From positions 23,441-87,440 of the forward strand of contig JAPLDX010000106.1 of assembly GCA_026391215.1 (NCBI GenBank): 64,000 bases of DNA. Direction: 5' to 3'. Position numbers and translations under genes: made by a program. This stretch comes from Bacteroidia bacterium. Lineage in GTDB: Bacteria; Bacteroidota; Bacteroidia; Bacteroidales; VadinHA17. Positions 9,181 through 64,000 of the stretch are shown here, one piece after another. Within the stretch, counting starts at the first letter, position 1, and each line of letters opens with the position of its first letter. The notes under the pieces are model-generated. The model did no database searches, had not been told where the DNA came from, and saw nothing but the letters and a program-made list of their open reading frames with translations.

Positions 9181-10422
9181 ATGAACGCTAACAAAAATGA
9201 GGCTACGGCTGTCCGTGGTGACAGTCGCCTCGTGGGTAGTTCTTCCGAAGAAGAACCTGGCGCGAAAACCATGATTTTTTCGCAAAACGAGATCCCAATT
9301 CAGTTAGTTAGCAACCGAAGTTCGGAGTTCATGCACCGCTACTTCCCCCTAACAACTATCGATTCCTGGAATGATTGGAAATGGCAAATGCGAAATGCTA
9401 TCACAAGCATTGACGAGCTAAAGAAAATCATGAAATTATCCGAAAAGGAGATTATGGCTATTAATAATCTTAAGGGCCGCCTCCCAATGAGGATAACTCC
9501 GTATTTTGCTTCGCTTATTTTTGACACCGGGTATTCACATCCTCTCAGGAGAAACGTAATACCTGTTGTTGAAGAGCTGCTACAAAGCAGCAGTGAGCAA
9601 TCCGATCCGTTACATGAGAAATCATCTTCTCCTGTTAAAGGTATAGTTCACAGATACCCCGACAGGATACTTTTCACTGTAACCCAGGTATGTTCTAATT
9701 ATTGCAGATATTGTACACGTTCGCATTCTGTAGGCAAACTGGACAAGCTCGGCAAACAGGATTTTGAGAAAGCCTTTAATTATATTGCTACTCATAAGGA
9801 GGTAAGAGACGTTCTCATCAGCGGTGGAGATCCACTTACCCTCAGCGATGCTCTCCTTGAATACATTGTTTCAAATATTAGAAGCATTGCACATGTTGAA
9901 ATAATACGTATAGGCACAAGAACACCTGTTGTATTACCCCAGAGGATTACTGACAACCTGGTCAACATGCTGAAAAAATATCAGCCTCTTTATTTCAGCC
10001 TTCATTTTTCGCATCCTGCTGAAGTAACTGACGAATGTGCAAAAGCTTGCAACAAGCTGGCCGATGCCGGATTTCCTCTTGGAAGTCAGACTGTCCTTCT
10101 TAAGGGCATTAATGATAATGTCCCCGTTATGAAGGAGCTCATGCACAAGCTGCTTATGATAAGAGTACGGCCTTATTATTTATATCAATGTGATCTCATT
10201 CCCGGTTCAGGTCATTTCAGGACCACTGTGAAGAAAGGTCTCGAAATAATGAAAGGATTACGAGGTTTCACAAGCGGTTATGCTGTGCCTACTTTTGTTG
10301 TTGATGCTCCTGGAGGAGGTGGTAAGATCCCGTTGATTCCGAATTATGTTGTTGAGCATAACAGTGAAAAAATAGTGCTGCGTAACTATAAGGGTGTTCT
10401 ATGTGAATACCCTGAAAAATAA
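9181..10422 (+). CDS. KamA-family radical SAM protein (lysine 2,3-aminomutase-like)
   Basis: HRYPDR, CSNYCRYCTR (CxxxCxxC), SGGDPL, YLYQCD, VVDAPGGGGKIP (PLP lysine). Confidence 0.9.
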   Translation: MNANKNEATAVRGDSRLVGSSSEEEPGAKTMIFSQNEIPIQLVSNRSSEFMHRYFPLTTIDSWNDWKWQMRNAITSIDELKKIMKLSEKEIMAINNLKGRLPMRITPYFASLIFDTGYSHPLRRNVIPVVEELLQSSSEQSDPLHEKSSSPVKGIVHRYPDRILFTVTQVCSNYCRYCTRSHSVGKLDKLGKQDFEKAFNYIATHKEVRDVLISGGDPLTLSDALLEYIVSNIRSIAHVEIIRIGTRTPVVLPQRITDNLVNMLKKYQPLYFSLHFSHPAEVTDECAKACNKLADAGFPLGSQTVLLKGINDNVPVMKELMHKLLMIRVRPYYLYQCDLIPGSGHFRTTVKKGLEIMKGLRGFTSGYAVPTFVVDAPGGGGKIPLIPNYVVEHNSEKIVLRNYKGVLCEYPEK

Positions 10423-54818: not shown

Positions 54819-55174
54819 TCCTTTCTAGTTTCAGCCTCGTTTCCATTCTTCACCATGGCGTTCCATGGATTTTTAAGACTACGAAAATATTGAAATATTT
54901 ATTAAAACTCTAGAAAGTTTAATAATATCTTTGAAAAAAATTGCAAGTCATAAAAGCTGTTTAACCAGCTAAACAGTGCAAAATATCATATTTTATGGAT
55001 ACAACAGAAGTAATCTTAATTGCAGCAGCCTTACTGGCACTTGGATTCAGCCTTTACAGGAAATTTGTTAAAAAGGACCAGGGGAAAAGCAGCTATGGTC
55101 AAAAAGAAAAGCCAGGTTCAGCATTCTCTTTGTACTCAAAGGATGATGATTATGAACCGTATTCAAAAAAATAA

Positions 55175-56476: not shown

Positions 56477-58663
56477 CTATTTCCCCAGCTCAAGCTGGTT
56501 TTTCACAAGATTGAAATACGGTCCGTTGTCCTCTATAAGTGATCCATGTGTTCCTGTTTCCACAATTCTGCCGTTGTCCATGACAACAATTTTATCAGCG
56601 TTTCTGACGGTACTGAGTCTGTGAGCAACAATAATCACTGTTTTACCCTTGAAGAAACTTGTAAGATTTTCTACAATAGCCTTTTCATTGTTGGCATCCA
56701 GCGAGTTTGTTGCTTCATCAAAAATTATAATATCAGGATTTTTGTAGACAACCCGTGCTATCAGCAATCTTTGCATTTGTCCCTCACTCAGGCCATGGCC
56801 ATTGGCTCCTACTTTTGTATTATACCCGATAGGCAGTGATTCTATAAATCCTTTAATATTTGCTGTCTCTGCTGCCCTGACCATTTTCTCTTCATCAATT
56901 TCCGCTTCGCCGGGAGCAATATTTGCTGCTATCGTATCCGGGAAGAGAAATCCATCCTGCATGACAGCGCCTGTCTTTTCACGCCATACTTTAAGGCTGA
57001 GGTTTGCAAGATGCGTATCTCCTATCAATATCTCTCCGGCTACAGGCTGGTAAAATCCGAGGAGCAGTTTGAGCAGTGTGGTTTTGCCGCTTCCGCTTGT
57101 GCCGACAATTGCTGTAGTCCTGTTTTCCTCGATATAAAGATCGGCATCTTTTATAGCATATGGTGAATGAGGTCCTTCGTATTGAAATGAAACGTTATTA
57201 ATAAAAATATCCTTTCTTTCAGGAAGCTTTCTTACCTTATATTCGGGATCAATCTCCTCGTCCTGCATTTCGTGAACTTCTGAGAGGCGGTCAAGACTCA
57301 TCTTTGCATCCTGCGACATTCTGAAAAAGGCAATTATCTGGCTTACCGGCACATTCATCTGGCCTATGATAAACTGTACTGCAAGCATCATACCCAGGGT
57401 CATGCTTCCCTTGAGTACAGATGTTGCTGCAACGATGGTGATCAACAGATTGGTTACTTCGTTTATGAATGTTGCACCTGCAGACTGATACTGGATTATT
57501 CCAAGACCTTTGATCTTAAGCCCGAAAAGTGTTGCCTGCAGCTTTTCCCAATCCCATCTCTTGCTTGTTTCACTTTGTGTGAGCTTGATCTCCTGCATTC
57601 CATTCACAATATTTATCAGCTTATTTCCTGACAGTGACATCTGCTTAAAACGCTGCTGGTCAAGCCTGGCTCGTGACTTCATGAATAGTGATACCCACAA
57701 GATATACAGGGCAGATCCAATAAGGAACACAGTCAGTATCTTAACATTGAAAATTGCGAGAACAATACCAAAAATTATAAGATTGAAGAAAGAGAAAAGG
57801 ATAGAAAGACTAGCCGAAGTAAGGAATTCTTCTATCCTGTTATTGTCTTCTATTCTCTGAAGAATATCACCTGTAAGTTTTGTATCGAAGAAAGCAATTG
57901 GCAAGGACATCAGTTTCTGAAGGAAACCTGAAATTATTGCTACATTAATCCTGGTCCCTATATGCAGGAGGAGCCATCCCCTGATGAATTCAACCGACAT
58001 TCTTCCGATCACTAGAGCAAGTTGTGCAAACAGGATCAGGTAAATGAAGCCTATGTCGTTATTATTCAGTCCAATATCTATTATTGACTTTGTAAGGAAA
58101 GGTATAATCAACTGGATCAGGCTTCCGAGAAGCAAACCAAGGATCAGTTGGAAAAGGTACTTGTCATACAGACGGAAATATTTGAAGAGGAACCTGAATC
58201 CATTTGATTTCTCATGTTCGTTCTCTTTTTCGAAAAGTGCAGGTGTGGGTTCAATAATAAGTACCAGTCCTGCCGGCTTTCCTTCGGACATAGTTGAAGC
58301 CCAGTTGCTGGTAAACTCATCGCGGTCATATTTAACAAGTCCGATAGCCGGATCAGCAGCCCATACTTTGTCATTCTTAATCTTATAAACCACAATGAAA
58401 TGACGTTGCCGCCAATGAACTATGCATGGCAGAGGGACACGCTCTTCCATCATTTCAAAAGGGATCTTAACGCCAATTGTTTTGAATCCCAGAGAATCAG
58501 CAGCCTCTGAAAGCCCAAGAAATGATACTCCCTCTCTGGTAATAAAACATTTTCTCCGGATGGTTTCCAGAGAAAAGTTTTTTTTGTAAAACGCTGCAAC
58601 CATTTTCAGGCATGCCGGCCCGCAATCCATTGCATCAGGTTGTTTTACAAAGGGAAACGACAT
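56477..58663 (-). CDS. Peptidase-containing ABC transporter (C39 PCAT; double-glycine peptide exporter)
   Basis: C39 domain QPDAMDCGPACL / HWRQRHFIVV / DP; TM domain; Walker A GTSGSGKTT, Walker B FDEAT, AHRLST. Confidence 0.93.
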   Translation of the reverse strand: MSFPFVKQPDAMDCGPACLKMVAAFYKKNFSLETIRRKCFITREGVSFLGLSEAADSLGFKTIGVKIPFEMMEERVPLPCIVHWRQRHFIVVYKIKNDKVWAADPAIGLVKYDRDEFTSNWASTMSEGKPAGLVLIIEPTPALFEKENEHEKSNGFRFLFKYFRLYDKYLFQLILGLLLGSLIQLIIPFLTKSIIDIGLNNNDIGFIYLILFAQLALVIGRMSVEFIRGWLLLHIGTRINVAIISGFLQKLMSLPIAFFDTKLTGDILQRIEDNNRIEEFLTSASLSILFSFFNLIIFGIVLAIFNVKILTVFLIGSALYILWVSLFMKSRARLDQQRFKQMSLSGNKLINIVNGMQEIKLTQSETSKRWDWEKLQATLFGLKIKGLGIIQYQSAGATFINEVTNLLITIVAATSVLKGSMTLGMMLAVQFIIGQMNVPVSQIIAFFRMSQDAKMSLDRLSEVHEMQDEEIDPEYKVRKLPERKDIFINNVSFQYEGPHSPYAIKDADLYIEENRTTAIVGTSGSGKTTLLKLLLGFYQPVAGEILIGDTHLANLSLKVWREKTGAVMQDGFLFPDTIAANIAPGEAEIDEEKMVRAAETANIKGFIESLPIGYNTKVGANGHGLSEGQMQRLLIARVVYKNPDIIIFDEATNSLDANNEKAIVENLTSFFKGKTVIIVAHRLSTVRNADKIVVMDNGRIVETGTHGSLIEDNGPYFNLVKNQLELGK

Positions 58664-58785
58664 CTCTCTTTCTGAAATAGATTCTTATACCTGTAAAGAT
58701 ATTTATATTTTGAATAGAAAATAACGGTAACCGCCATAAATTCAAAACTCGCACCTATTTCAAATATTATCCTGTGTGGAAATAC

Positions 58786-58793
58786 TATATTTG
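58786..58793 (+). promoter_or_regulatory. Bacteroidota housekeeping -7 element for the ECF sigma gene
   Basis: TATATTTG matches TAnnTTTG, about 25 nt before the TTG at 58819. Confidence 0.5.
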
Positions 58794-58818
58794 CCAATTA
58801 TATTCTATCAGACCGGGG

Positions 58819-59385
58819 TTGTTTAATAAAATATCAGATAAAAGCATAATTGAGGGTATCAGGAAACAGGACGATAAGACCCTGAATTGGCTGTATGATA
58901 ATTATTTTCAAACAGTTAAGAATTATGTTATAAAAAACAGCGGGACTGAAGAGGATGTTTCTGATGTTTTTCAGGATTCAATAATAATATTGTATAATCA
59001 GATTGCCGGAGAGAGCCTGAATCTAACGACTGATCTTAAAGGTTATTTCTTTGGTATAGCCCGCAATATATGGAGTTCCCAGCTACGGAAGAAACGAAGA
59101 ACGACAGGACTTGATATAGACCTTCCTGATGAACTGCCTCATGAAGAAACAGATGAACTGCTGTTTGAAAGGATAGTGAGCAGGGCTTTCCAGAAGCTTA
59201 AGCCTGACAACCAGACTATATTGACGTTATACTCTGATGGTCATTCCTATGAAGAGATTGCTGTCAGAATGAATCTGAAGAATGAAATTTATGCTCGCAG
59301 GAAGAAGTATCTCAGCAAAGAGGCGTTGATAGAAATTATCAAGGAAGATCCGGAATATCAGGAATATTTGAAATACCGGAAATAA
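58819..59385 (+). CDS. ECF (sigma-70 group 4) RNA polymerase sigma factor
   Basis: Region 2 LYDNYFQTVKNYV...DVSDVFQDSII, YFFGIARNIW; region 4 SYEEIAVRM. TTG start at 58819 is favoured by the promoter position. Confidence 0.9.
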   Translation: MFNKISDKSIIEGIRKQDDKTLNWLYDNYFQTVKNYVIKNSGTEEDVSDVFQDSIIILYNQIAGESLNLTTDLKGYFFGIARNIWSSQLRKKRRTTGLDIDLPDELPHEETDELLFERIVSRAFQKLKPDNQTILTLYSDGHSYEEIAVRMNLKNEIYARRKKYLSKEALIEIIKEDPEYQEYLKYRK

Positions 59386-62300
59386 ACGGCAAGCATAAGA
59401 ATAACAATTATAATGATTGCCGCTGGCAAGAATAATCCGGAAGGATATACTGGCGAATTATCTCCGTAGACTACCACCGAGGACCAGAAATATGGATGGG
59501 ACTTCAGCTGACTTGCTTTTTTCAGATATGTCGATCTTGCCTTTCTTAAAGCCATGCTTTTTGATTTTCCCTTATGCAGGTTATCATAGAACATCTTAAT
59601 AATATCTGTTCCTGACTGGTCCTCTATCTCCCACATGGACATAGTCACAGACTGACTGCCTGAATAAAGAAATCCCCTGGCAAGGCTAAGTATCCCTTCA
59701 CCCGAAAAAAGGAAACCGGAACCTGTATTGCATGAGCTGAGTACCACCATTTTTGCTTTCAGAGGTATTCCATAGACTTCATAAGTATTAAGAAGACCAT
59801 CCTCAGGCATATCGTTGATTTGTGAGAATATCATGGCAGAATTCATAGGATTTTGATCGTTAAGGTAGGTATGCATTGCCATATGAATAATATCATATTT
59901 CCCAGCTTCAGCCTTGAAGACAGATTCCCGCGCATCGTCATTAATATACAAAGTACCATGAGATATTTCAGATATATATTCTGCTTCCATGCGGGCATAT
60001 GGCAGGTCATACAGTATTTCGCTTTCCGCTTTTCTCCTCACAAATAGTGAATCAATATAGACCTCTTTTGTGTATGCCGGGGCAAATGCTATAAGATCCC
60101 GTGTTTTTCCATACTCTCTGGCAACAGTCTCTTTCATGAATGATGCAGAATAGGTATATGAGATATTGAATTCATTCATCATGTAAGGCAATTTACGATA
60201 GACAATGCCTTCTCCCTGATAGATGGAAGATAAAAATGCCTCAAATGGAAGGTAAGAAAGAATATTATCCGGCGAAATCACCAAATCATCAGAAATAAAG
60301 TACTTACGTACTGGTTCAACTAGGATTTTATAAAGGTCATGTCCTATTTGCTGATAGGAAGTGAATTTTCCCCTTGCATTTTCCGACAGGTTTGAATTTG
60401 AAAGGAGAGTTCTGAATTCCTTTAGTTTCCATATGAACGTCGAGTCTATATCAGTTTTCAGAATCTGCTGGTACTTCCGGTTTACAATGAAAATATAGAT
60501 GAGGGAATCCGATACTACATAATTGAGATAATTGACATTGCGGCCTATGATCTTCGGAATGTCTTTCATAACAAGAGCAGAGGTACTGTATTTAATAGCG
60601 TAATATCCCGGGTAGTCTCTTTCATAGGTCGCAACCAGTGAATCTCTTATTTGTACTGCTATGAGAAGGCTCTTATTCCATTCTGAGGTTTTGTTAATGT
60701 CAGGGAATTCCATTTCATTCTCTTTTGATATTTCGGCATTATAATAACCTATTTCATTTTGAAGTGATTTTTCCAGCTCAGCAACCGTTGGTGGTATATG
60801 AAAGTCAATTGCGTTCAATTCGCGGGTCGCGGCAAGCAATACTGCTGCTTTGCTCTTTTCAACATACTCAAAAGTCTTTTCCAGGAACCAGTTTTTGCCA
60901 GTATTACGGAAACATAATTCAAAATCGCGTATAGCAAAAAGATATGAGTCTCTGTAGTTGTCTCCAAGCACCATCCTGCTCTCCTCTTCGCTTATATTGA
61001 TCCTTATTCTGTCAATCAGTGAAATTATAAGCTCAGAAGTATTTGCAGCTGATTCCAGTACTTCCTGGTCAGCTGATCCTGAATATATTTTCCATAATAA
61101 TTCATATTTGAAACGAAGTATCCGTAAGGTCCTGTCGTCAGCAGTTAATCTTGAGATGTCAGGATTTTCATATTTCCCATACAATTTCCCCTGATCAATA
61201 TCGGAAAACAGCAATTCCTGTATTTTTTCCATTGCTTTAAGATTATCACCATTTCCCGAAAGGCTTTTTGCATAGCCGACAATTACAGGGTCTCTTAACA
61301 CAACCACTTCTTGATGCTGCTCTATGTATTCAATACATGGCATATAATACCTGATGGAATTCTGATAATCATGCTTATATATCCGTAAATAATTTGCATA
61401 ATTTATTAAAACTTCAATATAAAATCTTGAATCAGAACCATATACATTCTTTGATCTTTGAAGTAAAATGAGCAGCAATTCCTCTCCTTTGTCGATCATC
61501 CCTGAATTTCCAAGCTCATCTGCAAAATTATTTATCAGGTTAAACGCCATGTTTGAATTGCTGGAAAAAGCAAGTTCAAGACCTTTGTCATAATATTCCT
61601 TTTCCTTACTGGTCAGCCCCAGAGTTCCATAGGTGGATGCCAGGTTATTGATCAGGTTTATATAAGCCTCATCCTTAGTCAGATTATTTTTATAATAGAT
61701 TGATTCGGCTTCTTCCAGGTATATTCTTGCTTTTGTATGGTCGGCCAGCCTGGCATAACCGACTCCCATACTGTTATATAACCTGCATAGTTCTGATCCC
61801 TGCAAGGCATTTTTGTTCACACCTAATATTTCCAGAGCTTTAAAGGAATAACTTTTGAAGTTTTCATAATCATTATTCTCAAGGGCTGCACCTACAAGTG
61901 ATGAATATGCTTCTGCGATCTGAGGACTATAATATCCGTACAATTTTGTACCTATTGTTATGTATTGCAGCATATAGTAACCTGATCTTGTAAAATCACC
62001 CAACAAATTATATGCTACCCCGAGGTCATAAATTCCATTGGCATAATGATCATCCGTAATTCCAAACTCCTCCTTTATATCTACACTTAGATTGAGCCAG
62101 GGAAGTGCATAACCGTACTTATTTGCAAGCAGACTGCAGACACCAATATAGTAATATATTTCAGCAAGTGTCACGCTATCCGGGGGATTAATGGTCAGTG
62201 ATCTTTTAAGACTATCGGATAAGGATATTAATCCATTGATATCTTGTGCATCATTTAGAGAATTGACAAATGCATTTAATTTTTCGAGGGAGGCTGGAAG

Positions 62301-62456
62301 CTTTTGAGGTTCTATTGATAAGCTTTTCTTGTTGTTTGAATCCTCTAATGAAGAACCTGTTTGCGGAGAGCCAGGTACCATCGACGATATGAAGATGAAC
62401 CCTGAAAAGAGCGCTATTCTTGTGTGGTATTTGAAAATATGTATCCTCCTTATCAT
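59358..62456 (-). CDS. TPR + CHAT (caspase HetF-associated) domain protease with N-terminal signal and C-terminal TM anchor
   Basis: TPRs (YYYIGVC, IYDLGVAY, LYNSMGVGY); CHAT motifs LVISPDNILSYLPFEA, IIHMAMH, VVLSSCNTG, EGILSLARGF, MSMWEIED, HPYFWS; hydrophobic C-terminus. Confidence 0.9.
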   Translation of the reverse strand: MIRRIHIFKYHTRIALFSGFIFISSMVPGSPQTGSSLEDSNNKKSLSIEPQKLPASLEKLNAFVNSLNDAQDINGLISLSDSLKRSLTINPPDSVTLAEIYYYIGVCSLLANKYGYALPWLNLSVDIKEEFGITDDHYANGIYDLGVAYNLLGDFTRSGYYMLQYITIGTKLYGYYSPQIAEAYSSLVGAALENNDYENFKSYSFKALEILGVNKNALQGSELCRLYNSMGVGYARLADHTKARIYLEEAESIYYKNNLTKDEAYINLINNLASTYGTLGLTSKEKEYYDKGLELAFSSNSNMAFNLINNFADELGNSGMIDKGEELLLILLQRSKNVYGSDSRFYIEVLINYANYLRIYKHDYQNSIRYYMPCIEYIEQHQEVVVLRDPVIVGYAKSLSGNGDNLKAMEKIQELLFSDIDQGKLYGKYENPDISRLTADDRTLRILRFKYELLWKIYSGSADQEVLESAANTSELIISLIDRIRINISEEESRMVLGDNYRDSYLFAIRDFELCFRNTGKNWFLEKTFEYVEKSKAAVLLAATRELNAIDFHIPPTVAELEKSLQNEIGYYNAEISKENEMEFPDINKTSEWNKSLLIAVQIRDSLVATYERDYPGYYAIKYSTSALVMKDIPKIIGRNVNYLNYVVSDSLIYIFIVNRKYQQILKTDIDSTFIWKLKEFRTLLSNSNLSENARGKFTSYQQIGHDLYKILVEPVRKYFISDDLVISPDNILSYLPFEAFLSSIYQGEGIVYRKLPYMMNEFNISYTYSASFMKETVAREYGKTRDLIAFAPAYTKEVYIDSLFVRRKAESEILYDLPYARMEAEYISEISHGTLYINDDARESVFKAEAGKYDIIHMAMHTYLNDQNPMNSAMIFSQINDMPEDGLLNTYEVYGIPLKAKMVVLSSCNTGSGFLFSGEGILSLARGFLYSGSQSVTMSMWEIEDQSGTDIIKMFYDNLHKGKSKSMALRKARSTYLKKASQLKSHPYFWSSVVVYGDNSPVYPSGLFLPAAIIIIVILMLAVYFRYFKYS

Positions 62457-62509
62457 ATGGAAAGAATCAGCATATTATACAGGCGATTCAATAAACATGT
62501 ATTTCTTAT

Positions 62510-62517
62510 CAAATCTA
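62510..62517 (-). promoter_or_regulatory. Housekeeping -7 element for the CHAT gene
   Basis: caaatcta on + reads TAGATTTG on -, about 54 nt upstream of the CHAT start. Confidence 0.45.
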
Positions 62518-62674
62518 ATATTTTTTATTAAGGTTATTCATTTTATAAGTAATTGATTATCTGTGCATATAGAAATAATAATGCATTTTTTTGATTTTTT
62601 TGTGTCACAAATCAGTTATCAATGACATGTAGTATTGAATTACCCTGAATTAAATAATAATTAAAACGAAAATT

Positions 62675-62806
62675 ATGGAAGCCCTGGATCTTAAAAAAAC
62701 AAAAGACATTTTTGCTGAGTTTGCATTATCAAGTGAAGGAATGATTAATGTACGCGGTGGTGATGGTATTCCTCCTACTCCTCCAAATCCCCCGGTAAGA
62801 ATCTGA
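62675..62806 (+). CDS. Double-glycine-leader precursor peptide (43 aa; Pro-rich core DGIPPTPPNPPVRI); not in the ORF track
   Basis: MEALDLKKTKDIFAEFALSSEGMINVRGG|DGIPPTPPNPPVRI*. Leader LSxxxMxxVxGG; A-rich Bacteroidota-type initiation region; C39 PCAT 4 kb away. Confidence 0.8.
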   Translation: MEALDLKKTKDIFAEFALSSEGMINVRGGDGIPPTPPNPPVRI

Positions 62807-62998
62807 AAGATCAAGATAAAATTTCTGTGAAGGAAACAGGAAAATAATTACATCTGCCCAGTGGCTGATGGTTTTGTGGTGCGGGCTAATATAGAGCCCG
62901 ATCTGGAAAGGTACAATAAAAGTTGTGTGAGCGAATACTCTTATGTATTTGAAATACAATTGATTAATAGATATTTAAAATATAAACAACAATAATTT

Positions 62999-63745
62999 AT
63001 GAAAACAATTGACTTTTCATATTTCATCGAAAGGTATAATGCCGGTGAGATGAATGAAGCTGAAACAACATGGTTTCTTAAGGAGCTTGATAATAATGAA
63101 AAGCTTCGGAAAGAAGTTGATTTAAGGAAAAAAACCGACATGGTTCTTAAAACTCATGATGTCATTCAGTTACGAAATAAACTTACGGAAATTGAGAGAA
63201 TAAGGGCAGCAGAAAAACCTGTCAAAACCCCGGTAAAAAGTATGTCATTGAGATACGCTGCAATAATTGCCGGCTTAATGATTGTTGGCGGCATAACTCT
63301 TTATAACGGCAGGAGTATGACCAACGACGAAATACTCGACCGGTTCTATAAATCGTATGAGGTAACTTCACCTTCAAGGTCTCAGCAAGCCATTTTAAAT
63401 TCTGATTATTCCACGGCGATTGAGTATTACAATATCCATGATTACAGGAATGCTGCCCTTTATTTCAGTAAGGTTGTGGATTCTGATCCCAGATATATGG
63501 AATCAACGATGCTCAATGGCGTTTCAAACTTTGAAGTCAGGAATTATCCTGATGCGGAGAGTTCATTTATCAAAGTGATTGACAATAATGACAACCTGTT
63601 CCTGGAGGATTCTCAGTGGTACCTGGCTTTATGCTATCTAAGGACCAATGAACAGGAAAAAGCTTTTAATCAGTTAAATGCAATTAATAAATCTGAAAGT
63701 ATCTACAAAAGGGATGCGAAGAAAATCATGAAAAAAATGAAATAA
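62999..63745 (+). CDS. Putative anti-sigma factor: N-terminal helical domain, single TM, C-terminal TPR
   Basis: IERYNAGEMNEAETTWFLKELDNNEKLRKEV (anti-sigma-like N-terminus); TM YAAIIAGLMIVGGITLY; TPR ...SQWYLALCYL. Confidence 0.72.
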   Translation: MKTIDFSYFIERYNAGEMNEAETTWFLKELDNNEKLRKEVDLRKKTDMVLKTHDVIQLRNKLTEIERIRAAEKPVKTPVKSMSLRYAAIIAGLMIVGGITLYNGRSMTNDEILDRFYKSYEVTSPSRSQQAILNSDYSTAIEYYNIHDYRNAALYFSKVVDSDPRYMESTMLNGVSNFEVRNYPDAESSFIKVIDNNDNLFLEDSQWYLALCYLRTNEQEKAFNQLNAINKSESIYKRDAKKIMKKMK

Positions 63746-63761
63746 CTTTTTTTTGCAGTTC

Positions 63762-64000
63762 ATGCGGAACCTGAAATTAAATACTGATCAAAGCGCTGAA
63801 GAGTGTCCCGGTTGCCAGAATATTATTCCTGAGAATAGTATGATTAACTGTCCAACAATATTACAAGGCATGTCACATGAAGTGAGAACTCACATGAATG
63901 CGATTGTTGCACTCTCATTTCTCATGAGCAGGAACGAATGCAATAAAAGAGACAGGGAAGAATTCAGCGATCAGATATTAGCTTCCTGTGAACAGCTTAT
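63762..64000 (+). CDS. HisKA-domain (histidine kinase-like) protein, runs off the right edge; not in the ORF track
   Basis: MRNLKLNTDQSAEECPGCQNIIPENSMINCPTILQGMSHEVRTHMNAIVALSFLM...EEFSDQILASCEQL; H-box MSHEVRT. Confidence 0.7.
   Translation, partial: MRNLKLNTDQSAEECPGCQNIIPENSMINCPTILQGMSHEVRTHMNAIVALSFLMSRNECNKRDREEFSDQILASCEQL

Follow-up and report, generated by a model that had tools for sequence, protein, structure and literature searches.

Double-glycine (GG) precursor signalling is a textbook process in Gram-positive cocci. In the ComC/ComAB/ComDE and Blp systems, a short unmodified peptide with a GG leader is exported by a peptidase-C39 ABC transporter (PCAT) together with an accessory protein, is encoded beside its sensing genes and autoinduced, and diversifies in its mature part. 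To our knowledge, such signalling is hardly known in Gram-negative bacteria, and no description of double-glycine peptide signalling in Bacteroidota was found in the literature. Here, we analyse a gene for a 43-residue GG precursor in a Bacteroidales genome of the VadinHA17 lineage (assembly GCA_026391215.1, 3.39 Mb in 135 contigs). The window, that is, the whole stretch of DNA analysed, comprises 64,000 nucleotides at the end of contig JAPLDX010000106.1 (positions 23,441 to 87,440; C73 in our numbering). In it, the peptide gene stands among genes for an exporter, a sigma factor of the extracytoplasmic function (ECF) type, a protease combining tetratricopeptide repeats (TPR) with a CHAT domain, a TPR membrane protein and a histidine kinase.

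With regard to the regulatory genes, a point of reference is E. coli DegS, whose PDZ domain binds the C-termini of misfolded outer-membrane proteins and whose serine protease cuts the single-pass anti-sigma factor RseA of the sigma-E pathway. Another is the craspase system (Csx29, Csx30 and RpoE), in which a TPR-CHAT protease is linked to ECF-type sigma control. In Myxococcus xanthus, the periplasmic TPR-CHAT protein DdvA (8rot/8rw5) is proposed to be a signal-activated site-1 protease acting before RseP, and its signal is not known.

We propose that the window peptide is a linear, exported autoinducer, which would be sensed in the periplasm and would free the ECF sigma factor via the TPR-CHAT protease, a reading for which we hold the balance to be about even.

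The Peptide Gene and Its Family

The peptide gene and its two parts are as follows.

62675..62806 (+), precursor open reading frame (ORF) of 43 residues, ATG to TGA, encoding MEALDLKKTKDIFAEFALSSEGMINVRGGDGIPPTPPNPPVRI
62675..62761 (+), leader, residues 1 to 29, with a Gly-Gly end; L18, M23, V26, G28 and G29 are invariant in a 26-sequence alignment
62762..62806 (+), core, residues 30 to 43, and stop codon; predicted exported peptide, described by statistics on 123 family members

A preliminary description, made from the sequence alone, had placed the ORF at these coordinates and on this strand, and the sequence agrees. Counted on the translation, V, M and L stand at −4, −7 and −12 relative to the Gly-Gly, as it had noted, and residues 30 to 43 carry six Pro in 14, in the pattern I-PP-T-PP-N-PP, with neither Cys nor aromatic residues. 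The ORF had also been called unannotated, which is true of the ORF track used, whereas homologues in public records carry the label 'hypothetical protein'.

In a tblastn sample of 60 relatives, a stop-free match was present in 32 of the 36 other same-genus genomes at E ≤ 1 (28 at E ≤ 0.01), while outside the genus matches were weak only. The translations of the orthologues share a 29-residue leader followed by a core of 14 to 22 residues. Among the 23 orthologues whose leaders align without gaps, differences per site were 0.27, 0.24 and 0.44 for the first, second and third codon position, the third thus being the most variable; pN/pS was about 0.51 for the leader, compared with 0.31 for the final five codons. 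When 5.8 billion proteins were searched with a profile, 732 clusters (90% identity) were returned at E ≤ 0.001; none of them carries a Pfam domain, and their named members are 'hypothetical protein' entries from Bacteroidia, Bacteroidales or Bacteroidota metagenome-assembled genomes (MAGs). A hidden Markov model search of 1.84 billion representatives at 50% identity gave 130 at E ≤ 0.001, of which 51 at E ≤ 1e-10. The window peptide itself matched zero Pfam or NCBIfam families at E ≤ 1. This silence and the short length could suit a chance open frame between genes, but conservation, coding signature, synteny and the 732 and 130 clusters refute that idea, to which we give practically no weight. 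Since the frame is open in relatives, bears a coding signature, is syntenic and has homologous clusters, 62675..62806 is, on comparative sequence grounds, a real and presumably translated gene of a so far unnamed peptide family, here defined by a clear signature (732 clusters at 90% and 130 at 50% identity). A regular-expression scan of the whole genome for further GG-leader ORFs gave implausible matches only, and tblastn of the window proteins against the genome found no second peptide of the family. Of the sequencing runs listed as holding this sequence, 20 are of DNA and none is of RNA, a result that bears in no way on expression.

Family statistics were drawn from 123 database members, all of which passed the pattern [VIALCTM]-[RKQNS]-G-G. 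Their core ends in [DE]-P-I-[IVL]-[KL]-P-x-x-P-P-[VI]-[KRI]-I and spans 13 to 17 residues, 15 to 17 in 119 of the 123. Counted from the C-terminus, I is the last residue of 118 members, K, R or I fills −2 in 118, and −3 is occupied by V or I without exception (123 of 123); the penultimate residue is I, V, L or M rather than basic in 23. Pro occupies −4 in 120, −5 in 122, −8 in 99 and −12 in 113, I stands at −11 in 94, and D or E at −13 in 117. As many as 120 of the cores are distinct, and their variation is focused on −6, −7, −9 and −10 and on a short acidic or Gly-rich N-terminal part. Side-chain net charge is −1 or 0 in 105 members and +1 or +2 in four, Cys makes up 0.2% of core residues, and Ser/Thr are confined to variable positions. 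Of note, the window copy is atypical, with I at −12 and G at −13, so that it lacks the D/E-P pair there. Among 127 cores of distant representatives, 112 hold at least three Pro and 81 contain [DE]P; many of them finish with a stretch of beta-branched residues. The six columns that are invariant in the 26-sequence family alignment are L18, M23, V26, G28, G29 and P39.

The preliminary description had expected a conserved leader with a variable core at related CHAT/PCAT loci, and such loci were found; relatives whose PCATs are 89% to 92% identical bear quite different cores. The core is not freely variable, however, given the conserved C-terminal block of 13 residues, and the (xPP)3 period that had been stressed is peculiar to the window lineage, PP.PP.PP occurring in two of the 123 members. 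Contigs of relatives from other metagenomes align through the leader to about 62744–62767 and again from about 62998, skipping the core, and the unmatched continuation of one such contig, read by eye, is in frame and encodes a consensus-type core. This hints that homology ends near the leader/core junction; gaps in contig cover at 62815–62936 in two runs were not counted as evidence. Taken with the predicted cleavage site, the mature peptide would be 14 residues long here and mostly a 15- to 17-mer in the family, with the last 13 residues conserved.

Predicted Leader Processing and Export

The putative export genes lie on the opposite strand.

56477..58663 (−), PCAT with Peptidase_C39 (E 3e-35), ABC_membrane and ABC_tran domains, similar to TIGR01193/TIGR03796
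55175..56467 (−), HlyD-family membrane fusion protein, the PCAT partner (TIGR01843 E 9e-22, below cut-off; Pfam HlyD_3)

The PCAT gene is 4 kb from the peptide gene, and the HlyD gene adjoins it in every same-genus locus examined. Aligned with LahT150 (6mpz), PCAT1 (4ry2) and ComA (3k8u), the first 150 residues of the PCAT retain Gln, Cys, His and Asp at the motif positions of the C39 domain. On the precursor side, G28 and G29 are kept in 26 of 26 aligned sequences, and the invariant L−12, M−7, V−4 and GG agree with the leader residues bound by LahT; the first three fit the pattern of hydrophobic residues on one face of a leader helix. The earlier assignment as a double-glycine precursor with a C39-type leader is thereby supported from both sides, by the invariant leader residues and by the motif of the neighbouring PCAT. 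By tblastn against the whole genome there is no second PCAT, the remaining matches covering the ABC part only. Curated leader models (TIGR01847 and TIGR04149 type) did not match the window peptide at E ≤ 1, and TIGR04149 matched five of 26 members weakly, below its cut-off (best E 0.02).

The product had further been thought to be unmodified, and this seems probable, the module being devoid of a modifying enzyme: no radical SAM, YcaO, LanM, ATP-grasp or other maturase gene lies between the flanking housekeeping genes in the window or in related loci, so that a linear product is plausible. In one related locus (L021), a gene for a 209-residue radical SAM protein is located beyond the module boundary. 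From the leader and the C39 domain, the precursor is predicted to be cut after Gly29 and exported by the adjacent PCAT/HlyD pair.

The Gene Module and Its Distribution

Beyond the export genes, the module contains four genes for predicted regulatory proteins.

58774..59385 (+), ECF-type sigma-70 factor (TIGR02937 55.4 bits, cut-off 42.9; Pfam Sigma70_r2 and r4_2 above cut-offs)
59358..62456 (−), TPR-CHAT protease of 1032 residues with an N-terminal signal-like helix and a C-terminal transmembrane (TM) anchor (Pfam CHAT E 4e-52)
62999..63745 (+), membrane protein of 248 residues with an N-terminal cytoplasmic helical domain, one TM helix and a periplasmic TPR domain; possibly an anti-sigma factor, and a candidate for the receptor of the peptide
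63753..64000 (+), small histidine kinase, 5' part, cut by the contig end (HisKA and HATPase_c in full-length orthologues)

In the genus, the order is DUF349 protein, HlyD, PCAT, ECF sigma factor, TPR-CHAT protease, peptide, TPR membrane protein and small histidine kinase. It is identical in 15 of 16 fetched same-genus loci of 20 kb, the sixteenth being a weak match beside a CHAT paralogue of 27% identity. When loci were retrieved a second time, with the membrane protein as query, 22 orthologous ones were obtained, from MAGs of uncultured Bacteroidales; each of the 22 has the peptide gene upstream and the same order. The two sets overlap partly, as some genomes are common to both. The module is flanked by the DUF349 gene on one side and a convergent TPR-PD40-OmpA gene on the other, and these limits do not change among the 15 syntenic loci. 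According to tblastn, the genome holds one PCAT, one CHAT protein of this type and one such peptide. Five same-genus genomes gave no peptide match; one of them has an orthologous CHAT gene (61% identity) at a contig end, three have CHAT paralogues of at most 34% identity only, and one has none. Because the other four peptide-less genomes hold distant CHAT paralogues or none, the peptide and the protease appear to be lost together.

An order-wide sample of 401 genomes had 24 with a match at E ≤ 0.01, spread over 17 of its 236 genera; the window's own genome and genus are included in these figures. Among 20 further loci, 19 of them from other genera and several on contigs that end early, a CHAT homologue occurs within the retrieved DNA in 17, a TPR membrane protein in 12, an ECF sigma factor in 10 and a PCAT in 10, and all four are found together with a Pro-rich GG peptide in seven. 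The peptide gene is paired with the TPR membrane protein gene across genera, and the cores of other genera are different, yet begin with acidic residues and continue Pro-rich. In a phylum-wide sample, one of 400 other genomes matched, in the leader only.

Variants of the module were also noticed. Some genomes carry two peptide genes in a tandem arrangement, with slightly different cores, for instance locus L027 (9924–10061 and 10115–10237), and three other-genus loci have an extra copy of the TPR membrane protein gene directly after the sigma gene, the other copy following the peptide genes. In locus L024 of a relative, the peptide and membrane protein genes are intact, but those for CHAT, PCAT, HlyD and DUF349 are each split into numerous short frames, which looks like an indel-rich assembly rather than decay. 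Distant CHAT paralogues (27% to 34% identity) occur in same-genus genomes and one adjoins a weak leader-like match, a hint of further, separate peptide/CHAT systems in the genus.

With regard to immunity, no such gene was recognised in the module, although another of the genes may serve this function unrecognised. The sole small TM protein nearby is the 59-residue single-TM product of 54995–55174 (+), which is conserved between the DUF349 and HlyD genes in 25 or more same-genus loci and whose C-terminal DDDYEPYSKK is conserved as well. With this query, 149 genomes of other genera gave no match, and the protein has no Pfam family above threshold. It was considered as an immunity protein and dropped: it keeps its place beside DUF349 in a module-less genome and is therefore probably unrelated to the peptide module. 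PADLOC assigned no defence family to the CHAT, sigma, membrane protein, kinase or peptide genes, and for the PCAT reported generic ABC ATPase similarity only.

Sigma Factor, TPR Proteins and Histidine Kinase

The sigma gene probably starts at the TTG at 58819 and not at the GTG at 58774, as suggested by the onset of conservation at the TTG and by a conserved TATATTTG promoter box within the longer ORF.

The TPR membrane protein matched TPR families only in sequence searches of Pfam, NCBIfam and PDB. PDB searches with the whole protein and with its N-terminus gave TPR or insignificant matches only, and for 17 homologues TPR was the only type among the 25 most-matched of 63 Pfam families. An AlphaFold2 model of residues 1 to 100 (predicted local distance difference test score, pLDDT, 81.6) shows three helices and the TM helix. 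Foldseek of this N-terminal model returned two rows, both RsiW and both non-significant (E 3.4 and 6.8). In a scan of 48,161 chains that does not rely on Foldseek, RsiW ranked first (Z 6.8) and RslA second (Z 6.0), with AlgU-MucA fifth (Z 5.2) and SigK-RskA sixth (Z 5.1). The nearest named clusters in the ESM Atlas were zf-HC2, DUF4880 and RseA_N, with scores below 0.9, which serve as a lead only. Furthermore, the membrane protein gene stands directly after an ECF sigma gene in several other genera. From the model comparisons, the N-terminus is likely an anti-sigma domain, a call that we grade no higher because the Z values lie in a range common for helical models.

In the juxtamembrane segment (residues 106 to 135), Arg127 is invariant and Tyr120 near-invariant among 17 homologues down to 20% identity. 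The flexible TM-to-TPR segment with Arg127 is a candidate protease site.

All 25 aligned CHAT homologues keep H858, H862 and C909 of the TPR-CHAT protein. Its AlphaFold2 model (pLDDT 84.7, predicted template modelling score 0.80) begins with a hydrophobic helix and a disordered linker, followed by a TPR superhelix (55–640), the CHAT domain (640–1000) and a TM helix (1009–1031), and in Foldseek it matched Csx29/craspase (E 7.5e-15), separase (about 4e-13) and DdvA (8rw5, 2e-12; 8rot, 2e-11). From its signal-like helix at the N-terminus and its C-terminal TM helix, behind which a basic tail lies, the protease is predicted to be membrane-anchored on the periplasmic side. It and the anti-sigma-like protein are encoded by separate genes on opposite strands, and it carries no anti-sigma-like N-terminus.

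Intact orthologues of the histidine kinase have 254 to 279 residues and a variable N-terminus, without TM or sensor domain; an N-terminal CxxC is not conserved. The last 23 kinase residues encoded in the window occur identically on another contig of the assembly, C120, near 9241–9309, so that the two contigs overlap and the kinase gene continues there.

Putative Promoter and RNA Elements

Three elements accompany the peptide gene.

62603..62631 (+), promoter-like element, TGTCACAAA, a variable spacer of 14 nt and GACATGTA, from the alignment upstream of the peptide gene
62637..62652 (+), conserved block GAATTACCCTGAATTA, presumed 5' untranslated region (columns at least 60–80% conserved in a 25-sequence alignment)
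62822..62842 (+), hairpin or inverted repeat with the stem UUUCUGU...ACAGGAA, 16 nt past the peptide stop

In the aligned upstream regions of the genus, TGTCACAAA and ACATG are present in 25 of 25, as read by eye. The second half has the consensus (G/T)ACATG(T/A), the element lies about 45 to 75 nt before the ATG, and a conserved GAATTACCCTGAAT block follows downstream. TGTCAC-N14-18-GACATG occurs once in the 3.39-Mb genome, and looser forms have one to six matches. The peptide promoter is devoid of the TAnnTTTG box, which we take to be the Bacteroidetes housekeeping −7 element; such boxes precede the sigma and PCAT genes, two conserved ones lying in their divergent intergenic region. In other genera, related GT(C/T)AC ... 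CAT(A/G)TA elements are found before peptide genes, and two species of one other genus have the same GGGGTTACCTTTTT box in front of the sigma gene and of the peptide gene alike. The pattern fits a peptide operon promoter that would depend on the ECF sigma factor. Between 62400 and 63100, neither an excess of sigma-70-type promoters nor an intrinsic terminator was detected, and Rfam gave no credible match in 62300–63100.

Beyond the stop codon, a YCCUG-loop-CAGGR repeat occurs at the matching place, 10 to 20 nt past the stop, in most orthologues. Its pairing holds in 74% of cells, compared with 42–53% when slid, and covariation was not above that of shuffles; the repeat is kept mostly by sequence conservation, not covariation. 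RNAalifold found no consensus for the hairpin, the 200-nt spacer after the peptide gene has a folding z-score of −3.4, and there is no T-tract terminator between the peptide gene and the next gene. As a hairpin, the repeat might have a stabilising or an attenuating role, or else it might be a site for a protein.

Evolutionary Rates

Rates were expressed as mean pairwise distance (1 − identity) over 14 loci. Ascending, they are 0.22 for the PCAT body, 0.27 for the C39 domain, 0.36 for the sigma factor, 0.40 for HlyD, 0.42 for the CHAT protease part, 0.45 for the anti-sigma-like N-terminus, 0.46 for the leader, 0.51 for the periplasmic TPR domain of the membrane protein, 0.58 for the peptide core and 0.59 for the CHAT TPR region. 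The last three are thus the fastest and the PCAT the slowest. In partial Mantel tests controlling for PCAT divergence over the same 14 loci, the correlation of the core with the protease part, the N-terminal domain and C39 was about zero.

Proposed Circuit and Alternatives

In the proposed circuit, the PCAT and HlyD proteins would cut the precursor past Gly29 and export a short, linear, Pro-rich peptide, which would be the module's self-made signal. Outside the cytoplasm, a TPR surface would recognise it, be it on the downstream membrane protein's periplasmic domain or on the membrane-anchored TPR-CHAT protease, and recognition would alter CHAT-dependent proteolysis of the anti-sigma-like protein. 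The freed ECF sigma factor would then transcribe the peptide/anti-sigma/kinase operon from its special promoter, closing an autoinduction loop, with the sensor-less histidine kinase as a likely output. Export, the unmodified state, the TPR that binds, the direction of the effect, cleavage of the anti-sigma-like protein and the sigma dependence of the promoter are steps that we infer. The suggestion of the preliminary description that the peptide is a TPR-binding pheromone is a reasonable hypothesis, drawn from gene context, promoter and evolutionary rates, and is strengthened by the conserved context, the private promoter, the co-loss with the protease and the rapid diversification of core and TPR. 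A more specific version holds that the self-exported Pro-rich peptide switches on a periplasmic caspase-like TPR-CHAT protease, which cuts a TPR-bearing anti-sigma factor and releases the ECF sigma factor; this would be peptide quorum sensing in Gram-negative Bacteroidota, with parts that are new together and pherotype-like lineage variants. We regard this version as tentative and rather doubt it. If the proposed circuit is true, the candidate single-target promoter would make a useful orthogonal switch.

Several observations weigh against the autoinducer circuit. The Z values of at most 6.8 behind the anti-sigma assignment fall in the range commonly reached by helical models, and no sequence family in the Pfam and PDB searches supports it. 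The locus contains no partner response regulator for the kinase. The box shared by sigma and peptide genes was not seen in the other six of eight other-genus loci, and the sigma gene in the window's genus does not have the peptide promoter. In the partial Mantel tests, the core correlates positively with both TPR regions, but short of significance (r 0.23, p 0.07; r 0.20, p 0.10). If HlyD recruits an outer-membrane channel, a peptide of 1.3–1.8 kDa would need to re-enter the periplasm, for which the module encodes nothing. Moreover, a PCAT, HlyD and a hypervariable core are also the classical layout of a bacteriocin.

This last point leads to the alternative that the product is antimicrobial, a short class-II-microcin-like or Pro-rich peptide exported via PCAT/HlyD, with the sigma, anti-sigma and CHAT proteins regulating its production or sensing envelope damage. 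Its Pro-rich C-terminus, with a basic and then an aliphatic end, presumably recalls apidaecin-type peptides, and a core that is hypervariable among close relatives is what an arms race predicts. Pro-rich antimicrobial peptides of the apidaecin/oncocin type are, however, strongly cationic and Arg/Pro-rich, a trait that the family cores do not show: these are 13 to 17 residues long, mostly of net charge 0 or −1 (105 of 123) and almost free of Cys (0.2%), and in 23 of 123 the penultimate position holds I, V, L or M in place of a basic residue. A GG leader with PCAT and HlyD is standard for the export of class II bacteriocins and microcins, as described in PMC6671954 and PMC12219008, but no immunity-like gene is assigned to the module, most of the species in the genus have the locus as a fixed, single-copy and syntenic part of the chromosome and not as a patchy accessory island, and across genera the peptide gene is paired with that of the TPR membrane protein. 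These data weaken the Pro-rich antimicrobial alternative, and we consider an antimicrobial role unlikely.

Somewhat less probable still, in our view, is that the peptide is not a ligand of a TPR but serves the CHAT protease as a substrate or, like securin, as a pseudosubstrate, being either relieved of its acidic N-terminal part by a cut after Asp/Glu, which leaves the conserved 12-mer, or blocking the active site because its Asp/Glu-Pro bond resists. The D/E at −13 (117 of 123) and P at −12 (113 of 123), and [DE]P in 81 of 127 distant cores, would suit a caspase-fold protease with an intact dyad, and separase is restrained by a pseudosubstrate inhibitor. Yet the window peptide has no D/E-P pair at that position, and the sole invariant residue of the juxtamembrane linker is R127, which, if it marks the cleavage site, would speak for a basic and not an acidic P1 residue. 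Finally, the peptide might be the precursor of a ribosomally synthesised and post-translationally modified peptide (RiPP) whose modifying enzymes are encoded elsewhere in the genome. The likeness of five of 26 members to TIGR04149, a Bacteroidetes GG-leader RiPP family (best E 0.02), points this way, as does the reported occurrence of PCATs with radical SAM RiPP clusters in Bacteroidales. However, no maturase gene lies between the flanking housekeeping genes here or in related loci, module boundaries are constant in the 15 syntenic same-genus loci, and the cores are almost Cys-free with Ser/Thr only at variable positions, all of which makes a RiPP improbable.

Comparison With Known Systems

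No description of the module was found in the literature, in a search that did not cover supplementary tables (DdvA table S7 and the ECF group-context tables). A paper on RiPP mining in Bacteroidales mentions neither the CHAT domain nor sigma factors, and the main text of the ECF reclassification paper mentions neither CHAT nor C39.

As in ComC/ComAB/ComDE, the locus combines a GG-leader peptide with a variable mature part, a PCAT with an accessory protein and neighbouring regulators, and the peptidase domain of ComA matches the C39 domain of the window PCAT in sequence. In contrast to the ComC systems, the host is a Gram-negative member of the Bacteroidales, and the regulator would consist of an ECF sigma factor, a TPR membrane protein and a TPR-CHAT protein. 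Unlike ComD/ComE, the window kinase has HisKA and HATPase_c only, without TM or sensor domain, and the locus is without a response regulator. Within Bacteroidetes, the precursors of bacteroidetocins and of the TIGR04149 type share the L-S-x-x-E-[LM]-x-x-[IV]-x-G-G leader type and an adjacent PCAT. Those precursors have longer, Cys-containing or radical SAM-modified cores and an antibacterial role or one that is not known, whereas the cores of the window family are 13 to 17 residues long, Pro-rich and almost Cys-free, without a maturase and in a sigma/CHAT context.

On the protease side, the closest structural match is the type III-E craspase protein Csx29 (E 7.5e-15). Craspase is, however, cytoplasmic and RNA-activated via Cas7-11, whereas an extracytoplasmic location is predicted for the window protein, which is without a CRISPR context; the abstract of PMC10028731 mentions the craspase protease only. 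The likeness to DegS/RseA lies in the conserved free C-terminus of the peptide with its aliphatic last residue; in contrast to DegS ligands, the peptide is the product of a dedicated gene, and the candidate sensors are TPR domains and the protease is of the caspase fold. Most similar in design is DdvA/DdvS, where an ECF sigma factor is likewise coupled to a periplasmic TPR-CHAT protein with a His-Cys dyad. DdvA, however, fuses TPR-CHAT to an anti-sigma domain, and its regulon is a defence island, whereas the window protease is separate, with its own C-terminal anchor, and the anti-sigma-like protein bears a small TPR domain only. In addition, the window module, as predicted from genes and models, includes a secreted peptide and its exporter. 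DdvA/DdvS is the one characterised ECF system with a periplasmic TPR-CHAT protein, and its signal is missing; the window module offers a candidate ligand in the same locus, which makes the activation of a bacterial periplasmic CHAT protease directly testable.

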